A stretch of 64,000 nucleotides of DNA, taken from Minisyncoccia bacterium (lineage in GTDB: Bacteria > Patescibacteriota > Minisyncoccia > UBA6257 > 2-01-FULL-56-20). Below are positions 6,797-48,980 of the stretch, one piece after another (within the stretch, counting starts at the first letter, position 1; the number at the start of each line of letters is the position of its first letter). The stretch lies in assembly GCA_050008535.1 (NCBI GenBank), contig JBEKML010000002.1, positions 24,732 to 88,731 on the forward strand, in the 5' to 3' direction. Position numbers and translations under genes: made by a program. Under the pieces are notes generated by a model. The model did no database searches. It saw only the letters and a program-made list of their open reading frames with translations, and was not told where the DNA came from.

Positions 6797-6870
6797 CAAG
6801 AAAAATACAGAGGGGCTTTGAAGAGAGCCCTTCTGAGTACTCGATTCAAAGCCCCTCTGTATTTTTCTTG
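6797..6870. repeat. 26-bp-stem hairpin element with conserved loop (GAGCCCTTCTGAGTACTCG), copy 1; abuts 3' end of tRNA-Glu
   Basis: Perfect inverted repeat caagaaaaatacagaggggctttgaa / ttcaaagcccctctgtatttttcttg; loop nearly identical to copy at 14415-14484. Confidence 0.65.
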
Positions 6871-6945
6871 TGGTAGCCCCACCGGGAATCGAACCCGGAT
6901 TTACGCCGTGAAAGGGCGCCGTCCTAGCCATTAGACGATGAGGCC
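6871..6945 (-). tRNA. tRNA-Glu (UUC), CCA encoded
   Basis: Reverse complement GGCCTCATCGTCTAATGGCTAGGACGGCGCCCTTTCACGGCG...TTCGATTCCCGGTGGGGCTACCA folds as cloverleaf; anticodon loop CTTTCAC. Confidence 0.85.
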
Positions 6946-7008
6946 ATCGCAGCAGAGTGCCGCATCCTTGCTATAATATAATAGAGTCGTATATTTTGAA
7001 AGGTCGGT

Positions 7009-7434
7009 TTGCTTCATTCGTTAAAATCTATGCTTTCTGTCTTCTTTTTTTACGGCGGCTTGGGAGTGCTTGCGTTGCGTCTTGCGCTCGGCGTGATTTT
7101 CCTTGCGCATGGGTGGCCGAAGCTTCGGCATCTGCAACAGACGGCAGTTGAGTTCGACGGGCTGGGCTTCAAGCCGGGCAGGTTCTGGGGGACGCTCGTC
7201 GCGCTCCTTGAATCTTTCGGCGGCATCGCGCTTATCCTTGGATTCTACACACAGACCTTCGCGGTGCTTTTCGCGCTCGAGTTTATCGCGATTGTCGTGC
7301 GGAAGCTTATAAAGAAACAGCCGTTCGTCGGCGGCTGGGAGCTTGACCTCCTTGTCCTTACCGCATTCCTCGTGCTCGCCCTGAACGGCGGCGGCGCCTA
7401 CTCGTTTGACCGGGCTTTCTTCCTTGGATGGTAA
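7009..7434 (+). CDS. DoxX-family membrane protein
   Basis: 4 hydrophobic helices, DoxX-like sequence (GGLGVLALRLALGVIFLAHGWPKL); TTG start at 7009 after GAAAGG, alternative ATG at 7030. Confidence 0.7.
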   Translation: MLHSLKSMLSVFFFYGGLGVLALRLALGVIFLAHGWPKLRHLQQTAVEFDGLGFKPGRFWGTLVALLESFGGIALILGFYTQTFAVLFALEFIAIVVRKLIKKQPFVGGWELDLLVLTAFLVLALNGGGAYSFDRAFFLGW

Positions 7435-8957
7435 AACGGTTTTTTGAGATCCTGCCTGGGGCGCTCGCTTGGGCAACGATCATCTTCATGTTTTTGTTTT
7501 CGTGGCTTCTCCCCGCGTGGGTTTCGATTTTCATCATCCTTTTCGACGTCTACTGGCTTTTGAAGACCATCTATCTTTCGCTCCATCTTCGCGCGACGTT
7601 TTCGCAGATGAAGAAAAACATGGCGGTGGATTGGCTTCTGCGCCTAAACGAATCGAAGGGCGTTCCCCGATGGGAAAATATTTATCACCTCGTGATCCTC
7701 CCGATGTATCACGAACCGTACGAAGTGGTGAAAGAGAGCTTTGCGCGCCTTTTTGAAACGCATTATCCGAAAGAAAAATTATTGGTGGTGCTTGCGCTTG
7801 AGGGGCGCGCGGGCAGGGCGGCGGAGGAGGTGGGAGAGCGGATCAAAAAAGAGTTCGGCGGAAAATTTTTCCGCTTTCTTGTAACGACTCATCCTGCGGA
7901 CCTCCCCGGCGAGATCCCAGGCAAGGGATCCAACGAAACCTGGGCGGCGCTGCGGGCGAAGGAAATCCTGCTTGATCCGTTGCACATTCCCGCGGAAAAC
8001 ATTCTTGTTTCGGTCTTTGACGTGGATACGCAGGTCTTTACTGAATATTTCAGCCGGCTCACCTACGTGTTTCTCACAGCGCAGAATCGCTTGCGCGCCA
8101 TCTATCAGCCGATCCCGCTCTTTACGAACAACATCTATGAGGCGCCGGCATTGGCGCGGGTGGTCGCATTCTCCACGACCTTTTGGCAAATGATGCAGCA
8201 AGCGCGCCCGGAACGCCTGACCTCTTTTTCTTCCCAATCCGTGCCGCTCAAGGTATTGCTTGATATCGGATTTTGGCAGAAGGATATTGTCTCAGAGGAT
8301 TCGCGGGTTTTTTGGCAATGCTATTTGCGCTATCACGGCGACTTCCGCGTGGAGCCGCTCTTATATCCCTTGTCCATGGACGCGAACGTGGCGCCCACCT
8401 TTTGGGCTACCATGAAAAATCTTTACAAGCAGCAGCGGCGGTGGGGATGGGGGTGTGAGAACATTCCGTACATGCTTCAGGGGTTCCGGCGCGATCCGCA
8501 GATCCCGTCCGGGAAGAAACGCTACTGGAGGTTCAACGTACTGGAAGGATTCCATTCGTGGGCGACAAATGCACTTATGATCTTTGCCCTGGGGTGGCTT
8601 CCGCTTTTTCTTGGCGGCCGACATTTTACCGATACGCTTCTTTCTTACAACTTGCCGCGGATCACGCGGTTCATCATATCGCTTTCCATGATCGGTATCG
8701 TGAGCTCCGCGATCTTGGGCATCCTTCTTTTGCCGCCAAAAACAAAAGGGCTGCGCGCCCGCAATTATCTTGTCTATTTTTTACAATGGGCCCTTATGCC
8801 TCTTACGCTCATCATCTTCGGCGCCTTCCCCGGGCTTGAAGCGCAGACGCGGCTCATGCTCGGCGGTCGCTTCCGCCTGGGCTTTTGGGTTACGCCCAAG
8901 GGGCGTAACCCAAAAGGGGAAGAGGGACCGGGGAAACATGATAAAATAAAGCAATGA
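7428..8957 (+). CDS. membrane-embedded processive family-2 glycosyltransferase (cellulose/chitin-synthase-like; DxD, SED, QQRRW motifs)
   Basis: N- and C-terminal TM segments, VFDVDT, VSEDSRVFW and KQQRRWGWG motifs. Confidence 0.8.
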   Translation: MVKRFFEILPGALAWATIIFMFLFSWLLPAWVSIFIILFDVYWLLKTIYLSLHLRATFSQMKKNMAVDWLLRLNESKGVPRWENIYHLVILPMYHEPYEVVKESFARLFETHYPKEKLLVVLALEGRAGRAAEEVGERIKKEFGGKFFRFLVTTHPADLPGEIPGKGSNETWAALRAKEILLDPLHIPAENILVSVFDVDTQVFTEYFSRLTYVFLTAQNRLRAIYQPIPLFTNNIYEAPALARVVAFSTTFWQMMQQARPERLTSFSSQSVPLKVLLDIGFWQKDIVSEDSRVFWQCYLRYHGDFRVEPLLYPLSMDANVAPTFWATMKNLYKQQRRWGWGCENIPYMLQGFRRDPQIPSGKKRYWRFNVLEGFHSWATNALMIFALGWLPLFLGGRHFTDTLLSYNLPRITRFIISLSMIGIVSSAILGILLLPPKTKGLRARNYLVYFLQWALMPLTLIIFGAFPGLEAQTRLMLGGRFRLGFWVTPKGRNPKGEEGPGKHDKIKQ

Positions 8958-10093
8958 AAGTCCGCCGGGGGTTTACTATCATTGAACTTCTGATTTTTGC
9001 CGCTATTTTTTCTTCTATCATGGCGGGGCTTATCACCGTGCTTATTACCATGACGCGCGTGCAGAGCCGCCAATCGTCGGCGACCGACGTGGAAACACAG
9101 GGACAATTCTTGCTCCAGCAATTTCAGTATTACATACAAACGGCACGGCTGGTCGATATGGTGCAGGATGCCGCGGCGGGGACGCTCAAGCTCCGGGAGC
9201 TAACCTTGGCACCCGATCCCACCTTCGTTACGCTTGCCACGGGGACAGTATATCTTCAGCAGGGCCTTGGCGGAGCGCTCCAGCCCTTGACCTCGAACAA
9301 GGTGACGGTATCCAACCTTTCGTTTATAAGGCATTACAATCTCAATAGTTCCTCAACGGCGTACGGCGTCGATTCGGCATCGTACTCTTTCACGGTATCA
9401 GCGAATACTTCAAATACTACTCAGCAATATTTCCAAAAGTTCCAATCGTCTGCGGCGGTTACGGCGCCCGTTCCCAAAATTGCCCTTATGCAGCAGACGA
9501 GCACGCTTGTTTACGGAACGAGTACGAACATGGCGGGGACCTATATAGGCAATAATGCCACGGGGAGTTTGCTCGTTGCGGTCGTTGTGAACACTAATCT
9601 CGTTTCTATTTCGATCGGGGACACCGCGGGCAATGCATGGAGCAACATAGCGAGCACGACGTACGCGGCATACAATCAGAAGATCACTATTTTTGCCGCG
9701 GCCAATGCGCGCAACAGCTCGAACACGGTTACGGCAACCCTCGGGGGAAGCGGCGGGTATAATCCTTCACTTTTTCTCTATGAATATCGCAGTGCGTCGA
9801 CCTCTTCTTTGGTCGATGCTTCCTCTACCCAGACGCAGTCAAACGCGACGGCCATATCGAGCGGTCCGGCGACGCCGACCTCGAATGTCGAGCTTGTCTT
9901 CGGCGTGATGTACCTGAACACGTGGCCGGCAACCCCGCCCGTAGCCGGATCGGGGTTCACCATAAAATCCTCCTCAAGCGCGAGCAATACCTTTATTGAA
10001 GATAAAAATGTTTACGTGACTGGCCCTGTGGTTGCCGACTGGGCGCTCTCGCAGGCGGCAAGTTCGTCCGCGACCGTCGTCACGTTCAAGTAA
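8954..10093 (+). CDS. large type IV pilin/pseudopilin-like protein with Ser/Thr-rich C-terminal domain
   Basis: Class III signal MKVRRG|FTIIELLIFAAIF (G-1, F+1, E+5); start overlaps stop of GT2 gene (ATGA). Confidence 0.8.
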   Translation: MKVRRGFTIIELLIFAAIFSSIMAGLITVLITMTRVQSRQSSATDVETQGQFLLQQFQYYIQTARLVDMVQDAAAGTLKLRELTLAPDPTFVTLATGTVYLQQGLGGALQPLTSNKVTVSNLSFIRHYNLNSSSTAYGVDSASYSFTVSANTSNTTQQYFQKFQSSAAVTAPVPKIALMQQTSTLVYGTSTNMAGTYIGNNATGSLLVAVVVNTNLVSISIGDTAGNAWSNIASTTYAAYNQKITIFAAANARNSSNTVTATLGGSGGYNPSLFLYEYRSASTSSLVDASSTQTQSNATAISSGPATPTSNVELVFGVMYLNTWPATPPVAGSGFTIKSSSSASNTFIEDKNVYVTGPVVADWALSQAASSSATVVTFK

Positions 10094-10098
10094 GGCAA

Positions 10099-10254
10099 GC
10101 GCCAGGCCGCAATGGTCTTTGCGGGTACGGGTGTCGGCGTGCTCCAGCGGCACGCCGCACCCTGCTCTCTCGGCGCGGCGACTCCGCGCAGACGCGGAGA
10201 CCAAGCTCGCCGCGCCTCCGAGAGCCCCCGCCAAGACCATTGCGGCCTGGTGCT
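10099..10254. repeat. GC-rich structured palindromic element (28-bp imperfect outer stem enclosing nested hairpins)
   Basis: gcgccaggccgcaatggtctttgcggg ... cccgccaagaccattgcggcctggtgc outer arms; internal stems ggcgtgc/gcacgcc and ctccgcg/cgcggag. Confidence 0.5.
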
Positions 10255-10288
10255 TGCCCCATGTACGATTCTGTAAGATAATCCCAGC

Positions 10289-11149
10289 ATGAAAGATTAT
10301 TCTAAAAAGTTAAAAGAATACGACAAAGAAAAGATCACGCTCATTAAACATCAGTGGGGTCAAAACGCGACTTCTCTCTATAACCAAGTTGTTCAAGCTT
10401 GGGACCATATTCCTTTTGGCAAAAAAATTGCTATTATTTCCTATAAAAAATTTGGGATGAAAAGTGCCCTAACCTTTTTCAAAAAGAACGGCTTAGTATG
10501 TGAGGTTGTGGGCAAAGGACCCGACGGCCTAAGGCTCGTTGAATGCGAAAAGAAGGAACATAACCATTTAAAACCTATAGAAATATCAAATATAGTGAAG
10601 TTTGATTTTCTCGGGAAAAGTTATAAAGCTGACGTTGGAAGCTCCATCTTTTCTAAAACAGGTCTTGATAAAGGAACAAGATTTCTTCTGGAATCATTCT
10701 TTTCTTGGGATATTGATCTCAATGGAAAAGAAGTCGTCGATATGGGAACGGGGTGGGGCGCAATATCTATAATCATCGCCAATGAATTTCCAAAAGCTCG
10801 AATTACCGCATATGAAAAGGATGATGCATCTTTCGAGGCGGCCAAAGAAAATCTTTCAGGATTTTCGCAAGTAAACGTAAAGCAAGTCGATCTTGCTCAA
10901 AATATCAAACGGCAACGTGGGACATTCGATTATATTTTATCCAACCCTCCGTTTCATGTTACCACCGAAGAGAGGCATAGGATTTTTAAATATGCAGATA
11001 GTTTATTAAAAAAGAAGGGTGAGATGATCTTTGTCGTAGAAAATTCTTTTACTAATCGATTTGCCCTCACCGCAAAATCTTTTTTTGACATCCTGCAAGA
11101 AGAGAAAAACGCTGATTATAGTGTACTCAGATGTAGGAAGTTTGATTAG
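10289..11149 (+). CDS. class I SAM-dependent methyltransferase, RsmC/RlmG-like (rRNA guanine-N2 MTase family)
   Basis: DMGTGWGAISI SAM-binding motif and NPPFH catalytic motif; gene visibly A+T-richer than all neighbours. Confidence 0.75.
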   Translation: MKDYSKKLKEYDKEKITLIKHQWGQNATSLYNQVVQAWDHIPFGKKIAIISYKKFGMKSALTFFKKNGLVCEVVGKGPDGLRLVECEKKEHNHLKPIEISNIVKFDFLGKSYKADVGSSIFSKTGLDKGTRFLLESFFSWDIDLNGKEVVDMGTGWGAISIIIANEFPKARITAYEKDDASFEAAKENLSGFSQVNVKQVDLAQNIKRQRGTFDYILSNPPFHVTTEERHRIFKYADSLLKKKGEMIFVVENSFTNRFALTAKSFFDILQEEKNADYSVLRCRKFD

Positions 11150-11320
11150 TGTCTCCGCTTGTGCTTGCGAAACCACGCGGGAGGGCGAGGGAGAAATCCG
11201 CGAGCGAATAGAAAATCCGCCGGGTACCCGGGAGCGGCGACCAGGGTGGCGGATTTTCGTATATGAGCGAGCTGGATTTCCCGAGTCCGAAGCAGGTTTC
11301 GCAAGCACAAGCGGAGACAC
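11149..11320. repeat. GC-rich palindromic element: perfect 26-bp terminal inverted repeat with nested 11-bp stem
   Basis: gtgtctccgcttgtgcttgcgaaacc ... ggtttcgcaagcacaagcggagacac; inner gaaaatccgcc...ggcggattttc; lies between convergent MTase and recG. Confidence 0.55.
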
Positions 11321-11324
11321 TAAC

Positions 11325-14414: not shown

Positions 14415-14484
14415 GCAGCAACGCCAGAGGGTTTTGAAACGAGCCCTTCTTAGTACTCGTTTCAAAACCCTCTGGCGTTGCTGC
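14415..14484. repeat. 27-bp-stem hairpin element with conserved loop (AGCCCTTCTTAGTACT), copy 2; 8 nt from 3' end of tRNA-Lys and just after EamA stop
   Basis: gcagcaacgccagagggttttgaaacg / cgtttcaaaaccctctggcgttgctgc perfect inverted repeat; loop matches copy 1. Confidence 0.65.
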
Positions 14485-42897: not shown

Positions 42898-45800
42898 CTA
42901 CGGGATCTCTATCCGATTGGATCCTGATACATTGACGCTCGTCGTGACATTCACGCTATTTAATGGTCCCGCGCCTCCTCCCTGGCACGAAAGATTGTAC
43001 GTCGCGGCTTGCGTCGGGGAGACCGACAAGGTTCCTCCTGCCGGGTTCACTGAAGTGCCGTTTATGGCGCATGAAACAGTGTTTGTGCAGCTCCACGAGA
43101 GTACTGATGATTGCGGCGGGACGATCAGCGTGGGGCTTGCGGAGAAGGTGCAACTCGGCGCAATAACGGTGATCAATACGGAGTCCGAGGCGCCGCAGGC
43201 ATCCGTCGCTGTTAGTTGGTATAAACCTGGCTGGGAATATGAGACGGACCACGAATCACCGGCACCCATAGACCATGATGGGTCCGTAGGCCCCGTCGAG
43301 GTCCATGAAAAGTCCCCACAGCCTCCTGAAGCGGTAGCGGTCACGATGCTGCCCACGGGCACGGTGGTGGCAGGAGTTATGGAAATAGAAGGAGGAGAGG
43401 GTGCGTTTACCGTTATTGGCGTGGCTCCTGATTTTGTCGGGTCCTGAACGCTCGTCGCTTTTATAACGGCCTGCATGGATCCCGCAGCCAGCGCGACCCT
43501 GGCGGGCAGCCACAGTTCTTTCGCGGCGCTTATGCTTGCGGGTGCGGTATAGACGCCGCTTGCGTTAATTGATCCGCCGCCACTCGCGACCGACCAGGTT
43601 ACCGCAGAACTGTAACTGCCAGTGCCGCTAACAGTCGCTGAGCACATCGAGGTTCCTTCGAGCGGGACCGAAGTCGGGCTACAGGAGACGGAGACGGAGC
43701 CTATTGTGGACGCGGGCGGCGCCGAAGAGACGGAAATATTGCACGTTTTCGAGCTCGCGCCGCTTGTCACCGTCGCTGAATAATCGCCGGATGTGTTGTA
43801 GGTCGTCTGGAAGAAAGATCCATTCCAGGTGGAGGGGCTCGCCCCGCTTGAGGTCCAGCTGTAGGTGCCGTTCCCGCCGCCGGCACTGAAGGAAACCATG
43901 TCGCCCGTCGCCGAGGATTGATCCGCAGGGCTGCAGGTGAGTGCCACCGGAGTAGGTGTGACCGAAAGGGTTGCACTGTCCGAGGCGCTCCCGCCGGGGC
44001 CGGTGCAGGTCAGGGTGTAGGTATGCGTGCCGACCGTTGAAGGAGAGATCACTCCTTGCTGGTTTGAACCCACCGATTGCGCACCCGACCAATCGCTCTC
44101 TGCGGGGGAGGCGGAGGCGGTACAAGCGGTTGCGTTCGTGGTGGTCCAGAAAAGCGAGGCCGATTGCCCCACAGTGATGGGAGAAGGAGAGACCGAAAGG
44201 GAAACGGCGGGGGTCGTGCCGGTGCTCACGGTAAAGTCAACGTCGTTGGACTGGACGTTCGGCGAAGAAAATTGCGCCCACTCCGTCCAGGAACCAATGG
44301 TTCGTCCCGAAGCCTAGAGCGGAGCAGTTGGTCGGTCCATTATGAGTGGCGCAGAACGAAAAGGGCGTATTGGGGATATTTGAAGTAAGGTTGAGCGTCC
44401 ATGCCTGTCCGACTGTGAAATTACCGCTTGTGCCGCCGTTGATAGTGAGCGATGCGGTCGCGGCCGGGCTTACTACAAGGGTTGCGTTACTCGAGGCGCT
44501 CCCGCCGGGGCCGGTGCAGGTCAGGGTGTAGGTGTAGCTGCCCGTGGCGGCGGGGGAGACCGAGGTGGAGCCGCTCGTTGATCGCGAACCGGACCAGGCA
44601 TTCGACGCGGTGCAGGCGGTTGTGTTCGCGCTTGACCAGGTGAGCGTTGCCGATTGCCCGGCGTTGATGGAGGAAGGAGAGACCGAAAGGGAAACGGCGG
44701 GTTGTCGTTTCGCCCTTAAAAGCGATGCTGGCAACGTATGTCCCTGCAGTACTGGGAGGAGTTGTAGATATCGTCACATTACTCGATAGCCCCTGGTTAA
44801 TTGGCGAAATATTGGATAAAGAAGTGGACAAAGAAGATTCCTGAATCCATCCGCTCGAGGGCCCGCTTATATAGGTTACGTTCGCGCTTAAGCCGCCCAA
44901 AGTTGATCCTTGTGTGCCGCTATTCGTGATCGTTACCTGCCCGCTTGTATCGGATGGACTCAAAGAAAGTGATTCGGGGCTTACCGCCATTTTTGCTAAG
45001 GGATCCCACGAAATAATAAAATTGGCGGTGAGTTGGGAAGGGGAAAGTGTTAAGGTGTCCGCCGGGGAAATACTTACCGCATTTGCGGTTGGGATCGAGG
45101 AAAGAACATTCTTCAAAAGAGCGAACGAACTTGGCGTGTGGGTATCGTGCAAAGCAACATCCCGGTTTTCTATTGAGTGCAATGTATACTGGGTTTGATC
45201 AGATGGCGTAGCGGCGTTTGCTGGCAGGGTATACTGGTCATTATTTGCCCTCAGGCCAGTGTAAGTTCCTTGATAAGCATTGTCGCAGGAACCACCGTGC
45301 CCGGAACAGGGATCGTTGCCGGTGGGAAAAGCTGTGAAGTGCCAACTTGCAGGTACCGACAGATCGGTTTTGGAGTTCTTCGAAGAAACGGTGATCGTTC
45401 CATTTGTGCCGCCGACCGGGTCACATGTGCCGGGCGTTGAACCGGGGGTGTACGTTATGCCGCCCGTGAGGCCCGTAGCTGCCGTGTAGCAATAGGTTGC
45501 ACTCTGGGCATCTACCCAAGCTGACCCGCCGCCCCATTTCCCCGAACCGTTTGGCTTACATGCATTTATTACCGTAACAACGAGCTGATCGCCGGGATTT
45601 ACAACTGCGCTCCCGCTGCCGCCATTCCCACTGCCCGCCCCTCCGCAGCCGGAACCGGCAACATCGTCCGGGCCGCACGTGCAACCATTATAAGAATAAT
45701 AAAAGGTCCCGATTTGTGCGGATCCATTATCATCAAACGCAGCAACGCCAACATCTGCGGTGGTATTTGGATAAATGCGAATATTTACATAACCGCCTGG

Positions 45801-46085
45801 ATCGAGCCATGTCCCGGCGGGGATGCCTACCTGCGTGGCCGTTTCGGTCCATCCCGCAGGCAATGAATCTCCCCCCGCAGAATGGCACGTTTCCCCGCCC
45901 TTGCTGTATCCTCCCCAGTAGAAAAGTGAACAAGTGGAATTCCACATATTGGCGTGACTTACGAATCCGCACATCGTAGCCCCGTCGGAGCATGTCGCCA
46001 ATGCCGCGAAGGAAATTGACGGCGAAACAAGCGCAAGGGTGAATGACGCGACTGTCAAAATAAAAATGGTTTTCTGTGGTTTCAT
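42898..46085 (-). pseudogene. giant secreted Ig-like-repeat surface protein, fragmented into three consecutive ORFs (46085-44487, 44734-44237, 44229-42898)
   Basis: Signal peptide at 46085 end; frame change between ...AFKGETTT and QPAVSLSVSPSS (~44715) and stop/restart at 44237/44229, both at boundaries of a repeated TTPAVSLSVSPS...YTLTCTGPGGSAS module; Big_2-like segment in last ORF. Confidence 0.5.
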
Positions 46086-46088
46086 TGT

Positions 46089-46910
46089 TTATGAATTGGG
46101 TACTTTTGAACTCACAATAATGTTTGTCTGCCCTTTCGCTTCTCCTTGGATCTGAACGTTTATCTGCTCCTTCGTTGAACTATTTTCCGCGAAGATGGTT
46201 GCAAGCGCGGAGGTGTTCGTCTTGGTCATGATCTGCCATGACGCGCCGGAGAAGAGACCAAGGTATTGGTTATAAAGTGTGCTTACCGATTCGCTGCTTT
46301 GGTATATCGCAGCGGTCGTGTGAACACCACTTGCGGGATCGGGATTGTCGCTTGAACTTAAAATTTTCGCCGAAGGATCAACGACAAGCTTTCTGGGGAA
46401 TCCTGTTACGAGCGTACCTTGCTGAACGGTCAGATGAGCGAATTGAGGCGTCGCGGTTCCCGCAATCCCCGTCCCGTAACTTACGGTGACCTGCGACCCC
46501 GACCCCTGGACGACGATTGCAACGCTCACCACGGAGGAAGCATTCTCCGCGTAGAGGCCCCGGGAGTTTTTATATTCCGTGACTTTGTTTGTGATCGGCC
46601 AGCCATTCGCTGGAAGGTATGCAAGATATTCATTATAGATGTCCGCGACAGAACTGGAGGAATTGAACGAAACGGTATACTGGTTCGTGCTCGTGCTGTA
46701 GTTTATACTATAACTTTGCGAAATGCGCGCGAGGGAATCAAGAACGAGCTCTTTCGGAAATCCGGGCGTGAGTTGGCCGCTCGGCGCAAAAGCGGGCGTG
46801 CCCATTGGCACCGGCCGCGTTGACGAGAAATACCACCAAAAAGCAAGAAGTATGACGATTACGACAGCGATCGCAATAAAGACAATTCGTGCTCGCTTGT
46901 CCATTTCCAT
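46089..46910 (-). CDS. membrane-anchored protein with internally duplicated domain
   Basis: N-terminal TM helix; two homologous halves (FPKELVLD...YNEYLAYL...GWPI / FPRKLVVD...YNQYLGLF...SWQI); 4 nt upstream of adhesin start. Confidence 0.6.
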   Translation of the reverse strand: MEMDKRARIVFIAIAVVIVILLAFWWYFSSTRPVPMGTPAFAPSGQLTPGFPKELVLDSLARISQSYSINYSTSTNQYTVSFNSSSSVADIYNEYLAYLPANGWPITNKVTEYKNSRGLYAENASSVVSVAIVVQGSGSQVTVSYGTGIAGTATPQFAHLTVQQGTLVTGFPRKLVVDPSAKILSSSDNPDPASGVHTTAAIYQSSESVSTLYNQYLGLFSGASWQIMTKTNTSALATIFAENSSTKEQINVQIQGEAKGQTNIIVSSKVPNS

Positions 46911-47024
46911 TAGACTTATTATACCAAATCCTCCAAAAAAGAAATAGTGTGGATAGAAAACGGCCCCAGCAGCGCACAGTGCGCACCGCTGGGGCCGAAG
47001 TTGGTTTGGTTCCCGCCAGGGAAC

Positions 47025-48980
47025 CTAGAAGAGCGTAACGGTCAGCGACACCGGTTGTGAGGTCGTGCCGCCGGGACCCTTGCATTTCAGGGTCCCTTTG
47101 AGGGTCATTGGAGGCGTCCAGAGAGGTACCGCAATCGTCACGGAGTTGTTGACGGGTTGCTTGCCCTCGATGTCGCCCGACGCAACGCAGGAATCTGCAT
47201 CGGTCGTTTTCCACGTGATGGTCGCTGTCTCTCCTGCGCGAACTTTCTCGGGGGAGACGGAAAGGGTGATCGTCGGCTTTGGCGAAGCGGATTCTGATCC
47301 GACATCCGCGGGAGCGTCATCAGTAGGGTTCCTCGCGATGAAGATCATATTCCCATCAGAGCCGGGACGGGGACGACGGGAAACGTTTGCCATCTGCCCG
47401 CTACTGCCGCCACCGCTCATCAGAAGCGCTTGGCACTCGTTCGCCGCACACGCATACATCTGTGTGCCATCGGGCGAGACACCAAACCCAACTGCGAGCA
47501 GGTTGCTCGTTACTGACAGGTTCGTGGCCGTACCGGTCTTCGCGTCCACCGAGATGAACCGCGAGAGGCCGGCGACGGGGTCGGCGATAGCAACAAGAAT
47601 ACTGCCGTGCGTTTCGTCCGCTGCGATCCGGATAGGGGACAGTCCATCCCCCAGGATCGCACGGAGATCCACACGCTTGGTCTCCTTCATCGTCGCGATG
47701 TCAAAGATGACCAGTTGCTTGTCGGGCTGGGCAAGGAACGCCCCAGTGCCGACCGCGGGTCCCGAATTGAAGGCGGCGAGTTGCCATCCGCCAGCAGTCG
47801 CGCTGGCATCGGCTCCTACCTGGGTGATCCCGGGGAGGAACAGAAATCCCTTGGTGCTCATGTCGGGAACCGAGATTCGCCAAAGGGTTGAATCCCCGCG
47901 CGAGTAGACGATAGCATCCAGCTCTTTGCCGAGTTGCGCCATCGTGAGCGACCACGGATAGCTGCCGACCGACGTTGAGATCATCGATGGCGTGTCTTGG
48001 GCTAGATCAAAACTCGATACTAGCCCATCTTTGGGTTGAGTGACGCAGGCATAACCACTTCTGGCCGCTACGGCCATGGTCTGCTTACCATTGTATGCCG
48101 TGTGCACTCCGCTGGCGTTCGTCCAATCAACCACCATACTGCCAGCGCCCGCGCGTACGATTGACTTCGTTGTTTCGTCGTATGCTATGCCGCTGCCCCC
48201 TTCCGTCAAAAACCCATTCGGGGTCACGGTGGTTCCCGGGCCGACCAGGAATTTCCAGATATGCTGTTGCTTGTCGTCGGTGAGTGTTCCCTGTTGCAGT
48301 TGGAATAGCTTTCCTGACGAATCAAGCGCGAGTGTGTTCTGGTTCCCCTGGTAGCCGAAACTCATCGAGTTCGAGGTGCCTGCCGGACACTTCACTGACC
48401 AGCGGTAGAACTGCGGCGGCGACCAGCTAAAACTGAGGGTCACCCAGATTTTGTTGGGGGCCGTTCCTTCCAAGAGGGTCAGATCCACCCATGGATCTGC
48501 CAGGTGCAGCACGCACCCTGCGGCGAACCCAGACCCGTTGATCTGGATATTGCCGATGACCGATCCCCCGTCATCAAGATAGACCACATTCGGCGTGATC
48601 GAACTGATTACTGGGACCGGTGGCGTCACCGTGAGTGTCATTGAGGCGCTCTTTGTCGGGTCTTGCGTGGATGTCGCTGTTACCACGACCGTCATTGACG
48701 TCGTCGTGGACGGGGGGGTGAACAGCCCGCTTCCGGTGATCGTGCCCGCGCTCGCGGACCATGTCACCGCGGAACTGTAATTCCCCGTACCCGTTACTGA
48801 CGCCGAACATTGGGATGTCGCACCGCTTACGATCGTCGCCGGTGAGCACGTGATGCCCACCGATGTGATGGTAATGGGCGTGGGGGTGACTCCGCCGCTG
48901 GAACTTCCACCACCACTGGGGCAACCCGTCCCTGCCACGATGGCAAGGACGAGGATAGTCCAAAGAACACTCGTTTTCAT
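47025..48980 (-). CDS. lipoprotein-like surface protein: Big_2 Ig-like domain + beta-propeller-like region + C-terminal Ig-like domain
   Basis: Signal + LAIVAGTGC lipobox-like Cys; ITCSPATIVSGATSQCSASVTGTGNYSSAVTWSAS Big_2 motif; C-terminal domain resembles adhesin repeat. Confidence 0.65.
   Translation of the reverse strand: MKTSVLWTILVLAIVAGTGCPSGGGSSSGGVTPTPITITSVGITCSPATIVSGATSQCSASVTGTGNYSSAVTWSASAGTITGSGLFTPPSTTTSMTVVVTATSTQDPTKSASMTLTVTPPVPVISSITPNVVYLDDGGSVIGNIQINGSGFAAGCVLHLADPWVDLTLLEGTAPNKIWVTLSFSWSPPQFYRWSVKCPAGTSNSMSFGYQGNQNTLALDSSGKLFQLQQGTLTDDKQQHIWKFLVGPGTTVTPNGFLTEGGSGIAYDETTKSIVRAGAGSMVVDWTNASGVHTAYNGKQTMAVAARSGYACVTQPKDGLVSSFDLAQDTPSMISTSVGSYPWSLTMAQLGKELDAIVYSRGDSTLWRISVPDMSTKGFLFLPGITQVGADASATAGGWQLAAFNSGPAVGTGAFLAQPDKQLVIFDIATMKETKRVDLRAILGDGLSPIRIAADETHGSILVAIADPVAGLSRFISVDAKTGTATNLSVTSNLLAVGFGVSPDGTQMYACAANECQALLMSGGGSSGQMANVSRRPRPGSDGNMIFIARNPTDDAPADVGSESASPKPTITLSVSPEKVRAGETATITWKTTDADSCVASGDIEGKQPVNNSVTIAVPLWTPPMTLKGTLKCKGPGGTTSQPVSLTVTLF

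Follow-up and report, generated by a model that had tools for sequence, protein, structure and literature searches.

Does a membrane glycosyltransferase have anything to do with pili when its gene runs into that of a pilin-like protein? The question is raised by a 64,000-nt stretch of DNA, referred to here as the window, from a Minisyncoccia bacterium (Patescibacteriota, of the candidate phyla radiation, CPR; GCA_050008535.1, contig JBEKML010000002.1, positions 24,732-88,731, forward strand), in which the gene of a family-2 glycosyltransferase (GT2) overlaps the next one, encoding a pilin-like protein of 379 amino acids (aa). Cells of the Patescibacteria/CPR are believed to live in attachment to hosts, with type IV pili as their best-supported attachment organelles, and to my knowledge there is essentially nothing known of CPR surface glycans and their synthesis. 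A preliminary description of the locus took the tight coupling of the two genes to indicate a functional unit, concerned either with the synthesis or export of a pilus-associated polysaccharide or with glycosylation of the pilin. That interpretation, taken as a whole, is partly supported by the analysis presented here. Across the class, GT2 and a DoxX-family protein encoded immediately upstream recur in linkage with type IV pilus genes, and I put at about 0.5 the probability that the DoxX-GT2 pair and the pilin are functionally associated, as the co-expressed synthesis of a surface glycan and a pilus adhesin. A literature search found nothing relevant on a link between GT2 and pilins, or between DoxX and GT2, in CPR bacteria, and as far as that literature shows, the recurrent wiring of DoxX-GT2 into Minisyncoccia pilus clusters has not been described.

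The glycosyltransferase, its DoxX partner and the pilin

The three genes and the parts of their products, in window coordinates, are as follows (ORF, open reading frame; TM, transmembrane).

7030-7434, + strand: DoxX-family small membrane protein, about 134 aa (PF07681, 65.7 bits)
7428-8957, + strand: GT2 ORF, 509 aa; membrane-embedded, with two N-terminal TM helices, a GT-A domain (residues ~86-320), the QQRRW interface helix, C-terminal TM helices and an FWVTPK loop at the C-terminus
8954-10093, + strand: pilin-like ORF, 379 aa
8954-8971, + strand: class III prepilin leader MKVRRG, cut before F+1, with E+5 (PF07963; G-1 and E+5 conserved)
8972-9478, + strand: predicted pilin module of the GspJ-type minor pilin/pseudopilin kind, a long alpha-1 helix (residues 9-62) plus beta-sheet
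9479-10093, + strand: predicted C-terminal beta-sandwich (jelly-roll) module of ~200 aa, Ser/Thr/Asn-rich and lineage-specific

By fold and motifs, GT2 belongs to the membrane-integrated BcsA/CesA/hyaluronan-synthase (HAS) type of family-2 glycosyltransferases. Its motifs are PMYHEP (92), DVD (198-200), SED (289-291), QQRRW (335-339) and FWVTPK (486-491), the last of them an addition to the DxD, SED and QQRRW of the preliminary description, which had not listed FxVTxK. Closer alignment, with 38 homologs, leaves the catalytic residues in place, invariant or nearly so. The GT-A fold carries its DxD metal/nucleotide motif, the catalytic base lies in a (T/S/G)ED motif whose S289-E290-D291 is invariant in 38 sequences, and Q335, R337, R338 and W339 of QxxRW are likewise invariant, QQRRW falling inside a predicted helix (325-355). 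FWVTPK is conserved, lies at the far C-terminal end, past the last TM helix, and fits FxVTxK, the UDP-contacting gating-loop motif that is essential in BcsA and CesA8 by mutagenesis (PMC10592267).

The match of GT2 to Pfam family Glyco_trans_2_3 (PF13632) is borderline (28.5 bits against a cut-off of 27), several close homologs receive no Pfam call, and the sole NCBIfam match is a local one to PgaC_IcaA over the ED-QxxRW region, at 20 bits against a cut-off of 422. Since no glycosyltransferase was matched when GT2 alignments were run as profiles against all sequences in PDB, with E limits of 1 and of 10, the kinship to known synthases is drawn entirely from fold and motifs. The family is large, very conserved and divergent in sequence from known synthases. 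A GT2 identical at 100% is on record under the name Minisyncoccia. A word index gave more than 6000 matches, the top ones listed being 65-86% identical and all the named ones among them Patescibacteria; a library of representatives at 50% identity contains 354 clusters matching below 1e-30; and a sample of distant relatives (27-50% identity) contains, where labelled, Patescibacteria, with no characterised or other-phylum member found in it.

The doxX gene was overlooked in the preliminary description. Its ORF opens with TTG at 7009, and its likely start is the ATG at 7030, homologs beginning at the equivalent Met (for example in L017, one of the loci surveyed below). Its stop (7432-7434) overlaps the start of GT2 (7428) as ATGGTAA; at the other end of GT2, the ATG of the pilin (8954) overlaps the TGA (8955-8957), read gcaATGAaa, exactly at the ORF coordinates reported earlier. 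By analogy with PgaD/IcaD, DoxX may serve the synthase as an accessory subunit.

The 379-aa protein is, on the model described here, a modular minor pilin, made of a GspJ/XcpW-like pilin module and a C-terminal beta-sandwich. Its N-terminus consists of MKVRRG and, after the cleavage site, FTIIELLIFAAIFSSIMAGL, and it has the parts of a class III signal: a short basic leader, G-1, a hydrophobic residue at +1, E+5 and about 20 hydrophobic residues (MKVRRG followed by FTIIELLIFAAIFSSIMAGLITVL). The prepilin signal reported earlier is borne out by a PF07963 match above the cut-off (21.6 bits against 21.2) and by conservation of G-1 and E+5 at 90% or more in 40 homologs, and a six-frame reading of the window turns up no prepilin-type motif other than this one. 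[quoted passage not shown] A two-module protein of this sort, with an extra module that is not pilus-specific, agrees with the definition of a modular pilin by Raynaud et al. (2021; PMC8179133).

Of the long Ser/Thr/Asn-rich C-terminal domain described earlier, the composition is right: Ser, Thr and Asn together make up 37% of residues 176-379 and charged residues 6%, and the whole pilin has seven N-x-S/T sequons. The word "giant" is not, 379 aa being normal for modular minor pilins, nor is the region disordered. It is confidently predicted to be a folded beta-sandwich and not low-complexity sequence, which rules out a disordered mucin-like stalk. The suggestion that the module might be lectin-like stays generic, for the beta-sandwich is predicted, and no PDB entry was matched at E <= 0.001 when the pilin model was searched with Foldseek; an adhesin or lectin module is possible. 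The idea that the protein is a fusion of a short pilin with the cupredoxin-like protein encoded beside it in relatives was rejected (BLASTP E = 0.29). Full-length relatives are 43-73% identical, many relatives of ~270 aa match only the first ~165 residues, and some family members of ~600 aa add a ConA-like/LamG domain (PF13385). The C-terminal module is thus exchangeable within the family (~270-, 379- and ~600-aa forms), the window's type being found in 6 of 80 GT2 loci.

Recurrent linkage of DoxX-GT2 to type IV pilus genes

The pairing was surveyed from both of its sides. On the GT2 side, one locus was taken for each of 80 species (L001-L080), 74 of them evaluable for a downstream prepilin and 76 for DoxX. 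An ORF with a prepilin signal starts within 1.5 kb downstream of GT2, on the same strand, in 23 of the 74, and the density of such ORFs is 0.21/kb after GT2 as compared to 0.012/kb in the rest of the loci, about 18-fold higher. The window's own pilin family lies within ~3 kb of GT2 in 26/80 loci (tblastn), and some pilus gene lies within ~6 kb in 34/80. In three loci the slot is taken by a pilin of unrelated kind, on the same strand in L013 and L037 and on the opposite one in L030. DoxX is a more constant partner of GT2 than the pilin, its gene lying immediately 5' and in the same direction in 38 of 76 species. On the pilin side, 73 metagenome loci were collected. Upstream sequence of 1.7 kb or more was available in 43 of them; GT2 is present in 24 of the 43, in 22 of these upstream on the same strand, and a number of shorter contigs break off within a GT2 upstream of the pilin. 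The gene pair is conserved in relatives, then, but it is facultative.

The linkage outlives rearrangement. A pilin of the family is moved or inverted yet still near GT2, upstream or on the opposite strand, in six loci (L049, L065, L066, L068, L099, L145), and it is displaced from GT2 by 0.5-1.2 kb in five (L025, L045, L048, L060, L078). In L154 (4516-8371), DoxX is followed directly by a family pilin with its module and then by RecG, with no GT2 between, an apparent loss of GT2 from a conserved block.

The module just mentioned is conserved, has four genes and is usually headed by the family pilin, after which come a protein resembling cupredoxins (PF13473), a small TM protein marked by the motif SPYSAVYLS and a large one marked by FxGPTxNPPxGxGAIG. 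The window lacks this module, which is present in many other loci (e.g., L081 6001-9774; L095 4917-6962; L150 4995-8943; L154 4968-8371), and it may be pilus-associated. Two contexts are found upstream of it. One is DoxX-GT2. The other is a pilus operon without GT2, consisting of PilB (T2SSE), PilC (T2SSF), a GspH-like pilin, a second pilin and a 318-aa protein; it occurs in L095, L109, L123/124, L128, L129, L135 and L150, with confirmation by Pfam.

Four loci bridge the two contexts and place pilus machinery on either side of DoxX-GT2. L017, whose pilin (375 aa) is of the same type as the window's, has on one strand PilB, PilC, ORFs of 136 and 517 aa, DoxX, GT2 and the pilin, and then RecG on the opposite strand. 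L012 has PilC and two pilins, then genes resembling those of insertion sequences (IS), then DoxX-GT2. In L051 and L058, PilB lies 3-4 kb downstream of GT2, with PilC as well in L051. The IS-like/transposase-like ORFs of L012 (2045-5302) suggest an insertion that broke a once-contiguous pilus-DoxX-GT2 cluster. L024 has two more minor-pilin-cluster genes after its pilin module. In the window itself, the prepilin peptidase and pilus assembly genes that the preliminary description suggested looking for did not turn up: no pilus gene beyond the pilin was found in the 64 kb by scanning for motifs, by running Pfam on 20 ORFs or by tblastn, for which the queries were PilB, PilC, minor pilins and the other three proteins of the module. 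Family members in other genomes do sit beside T2SSE/T2SSF genes.

Boundaries of the unit and its surroundings

The following features of the window lie outside the three genes.

6871-6945, - strand: tRNA-Glu, 5' neighbour of DoxX
6968-6995, + strand: weak sigma-70-like promoter candidate TTGCTA-16-TATATT (consensus scan, 9/12 matches), between tRNA-Glu and the DoxX start
10094-10258, + strand: 165-nt hairpin with a three-way junction, beginning directly 3' of the pilin stop codon
34267-35010: small soluble-type GT2 (PF00535, 247 aa), between Map-like and GreA-like genes, with a 1-nt overlap with the latter

Because DoxX overlaps GT2 from upstream, with a promoter candidate before it and a hairpin after the pilin, the anatomy of doxX-GT2-pilin suggests one three-gene unit. 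The hairpin has 32-nt arms, 94% complementary, and is very stable (positions 10094-10288 have a minimum free energy, MFE, of -137 kcal/mol, with z = -12.9 relative to shuffled sequences); it is the probable 3' boundary of the operon, as a terminator or stabiliser. At gathering score, Rfam recognised only tRNAs over the whole window, so the hairpin matches no family, and its sequence has no second copy in the window. A second giant hairpin, unrelated in sequence, is found at 11146-11323 between convergent methyltransferase and RecG genes; its two 29-nt arms, separated by 120 nt, are perfectly complementary, and its MFE is -110 kcal/mol.

There is also a family of perfect hairpins of 70-80 nt whose stems differ (covarying) and whose apical sequence, AGCCCTTCTKAGTACTC, is conserved. 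Copies occur in the window at 6797-6870 and 14415-14484, both abutting the 3' ends of tRNA genes (tRNA-Glu and tRNA-Lys), and elsewhere in L004 (8650-8730, 3' of the pilin gene), L001 (~5280), L003 (~5390) and L140/L141 (~2840). The core motif, GCCCTTCNNAGTAC, is found in only 5 of 160 fetched loci, all with GT2s 78-81% identical, and the family may represent a lineage-specific terminator or protein-binding hairpin.

The neighbours of the unit are tRNA-Glu (-), TsaD (-), an RsmC-like methyltransferase (+) and RecG (-). The remaining ORFs of the window, judged by N-terminal sequences and not all of them scanned, include ribosomal-protein, EF-G/EF-Tu, SecY, DnaE-like and ATP-synthase-type genes. 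Four large ORFs at 42898-48980 (-; 443, 532, 273 and 651 aa), with signal-peptide-like or TM-like N-termini and almost without Pfam matches (one PKD domain), are candidate surface proteins.

The proposed attachment apparatus, its rivals and known systems

In the mechanism that I favour, GT2 would take a UDP-sugar at its cytoplasmic GT-A site (DxD, SED base, QxxRW, FxVTxK loop), extend a beta-linked glycan and thread it through its own transmembrane pore, possibly aided in export by the co-translated DoxX. The pilin would be processed by prepilin peptidase and added at low copy by type IV pilus machinery encoded elsewhere, probably at the pilus tip, where it would show its beta-sandwich as a binding module. 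DoxX-GT2 and pilin would then be co-expressed parts of one cell-surface attachment apparatus, most likely in the form of a secreted glycan acting with pili, the pilin module binding, for example, the GT2 glycan or host glycans; chemical modification of the pilin by GT2 is less likely. A functional link, and with it a plausible link of GT2 to type IV pili, is favoured by the enrichment seen from both directions, its persistence through rearrangements, the presence of machinery on either side of GT2, the differing pilins in one slot and the co-directional, tightly spaced genes.

A number of observations weigh against such a link. The ATGA overlap by itself is weak evidence, because overlaps are routine in this compact genome: Adk and Map overlap by 23 nt, and the small PF00535 GT2 overlaps by 1 nt a gene identified as GreA-like from its N-terminal sequence, an instance of unrelated genes overlapping. 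The overlap is confined, moreover, to the closest relatives (L002, L004), with gaps of 4-100 bp elsewhere. GT2-pilin adjacency is lacking in two thirds of species, RecG directly following GT2 in many (L009-L012, L050, L057, L062, L069, L071, L072, L074), and the TsaD/DoxX/GT2/RecG region is syntenic in the class, so that housekeeping genes of plainly unrelated function are just as constant as neighbours. The pilin module also has its GT2-free context in pilus operons. As for the enzyme, the cytosolic placement of FWVTPK comes from a rough hydropathy count and a low-confidence region of the model, and because the top structural match is described as a mannosyltransferase and not a polymer synthase, polymer synthesis by GT2 is something that I infer.

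Several of these facts could reflect nothing but inherited synteny, GT2 (with DoxX) being a housekeeping envelope enzyme, the slot between it and RecG being variable and sometimes filled by a pilin, and the spacing being due to compaction. TsaD (27/80), DoxX (41/80) and RecG (31/80) are indeed co-conserved around GT2 despite clearly unrelated functions, most species have no adjacent pilin, and the pilin family occurs without GT2 both in pilus operons and elsewhere. I nonetheless find this account somewhat doubtful, since the linkage survives the rearrangements listed above, pilus machinery flanks DoxX-GT2 on either side in the four bridging loci, and different pilin families appear in the same slot, with an enrichment of ~18-fold over the local background. 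It is rather unlikely that GT2 is instead a non-processive membrane glycosyltransferase, essential to the envelope, that acts on a glycolipid or lipid carrier with a minimal cellulose-synthase-like fold: the extreme conservation of GT2 and its match to PcManGT would suit such an enzyme, but QxxRW and FxVTxK point to polymer synthesis.

Glycosylation of the Ser/Thr/Asn-rich domain by GT2, directly or through a lipid-linked sugar donor, had been offered earlier as an alternative, and it draws on the composition of the module, the seven sequons of the whole protein and the adjacent, co-translated genes. Glycosylation is common for pilins elsewhere and has been predicted for those of Saccharibacteria (PMC11623550). 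It is very improbable here, however, since GT2 has the QxxRW/FxVTxK architecture of a polymerising enzyme with a cytoplasmic active site, the Ser/Thr-rich region is predicted to be a compact beta-sandwich and not a mucin-like linker, GT2 is conserved in many species that lack the rare C-terminal domain, and no Wzy_C/GT-C-like ORF was found among those scanned. In the opposite direction, a bolder form of the favoured association would make DoxX-GT2 a so far unnoticed accessory module in the type IV pilus system of Minisyncoccia, with the secreted glycan coupled to the pilus as an attachment device, perhaps captured or deployed by the beta-sandwich of the tip pilin or serving passage or anchoring of the pilus through the envelope. 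I consider this decidedly unlikely.

If DoxX-GT2 and pilin do belong together, a class-wide conserved BcsA/HAS-like synthase with a DoxX partner becomes a testable candidate for the making of a CPR surface polysaccharide and for a connection between pilus and glycan. Even if there is only synteny, a large family of "hypothetical/GT2" proteins can be annotated as having the cellulose-synthase fold with an FxVTxK motif, and its neighbour as a modular GspJ-like minor pilin heading a four-gene pilus-associated module.

Among known enzymes, BcsA and CesA (plant CesA and CslF6 being among those compared) differ from GT2 in several ways. No sequence similarity to them was detected in the profile search against PDB, and GT2 lacks both a PilZ domain and a BcsB partner and has fewer TM helices, none of them following its FxVTxK. 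From the alignment, the position of the first nucleotide-binding Asp appears to hold an invariant Glu (E125). HAS and chitin synthases carry a WGTR/K-type loop. GT2 has FxVTxK instead and is only 14% identical to the group of Class I HAS (Chlorella virus HAS, Xenopus HAS1) and chitin synthases/NodC. It resembles PgaC-PgaD and IcaA-IcaD in that a membrane GT2 has as its co-translated neighbour a small protein with several TM helices; here, however, the partner is upstream and of the DoxX family, unrelated to PgaD/IcaD, GT2 is not a PgaC_IcaA member, and the role given to DoxX is purely conjectural. Known O-glycosylation of pilins is carried out by transferases of the PglL/PilO/TfpO or TfpW type at the outer face of the cytoplasmic membrane. 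Such systems pair a Wzy_C-type or GT-C transferase with the pilin, whereas the adjacent enzyme here is a GT-A/GT2 synthase, and no Wzy_C/GT-C-like transferase was seen among the neighbouring ORFs scanned.

With respect to GspJ/XcpW/PilW of type II secretion systems and type IV pili, the scores of the window's pilin fall far short of the family cut-offs, the window has neither GspI nor GspK next to it, and the CPR host cell is presumably monoderm. The closest parallels are modular minor pilins, such as PilB and PilC of Streptococcus sanguinis, CofB of enterotoxigenic Escherichia coli (ETEC) and PilX1 of Saccharibacterium TM7x, the last a beta-jelly-roll minor pilin (PMC11623550). All have in common a prepilin signal and a small pilin module onto which a C-terminal module is grafted; CofB and PilX1 also have a beta-sandwich or jelly-roll module, and some homologs of the window's family add a ConA-like/LamG domain, as PilC does. 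What sets the protein of the window apart is a predicted pilin module of the GspJ/XcpW kind, a C-terminal module with no close solved relative, and a gene detached from the pilus machinery and joined to the operon of a GT2.

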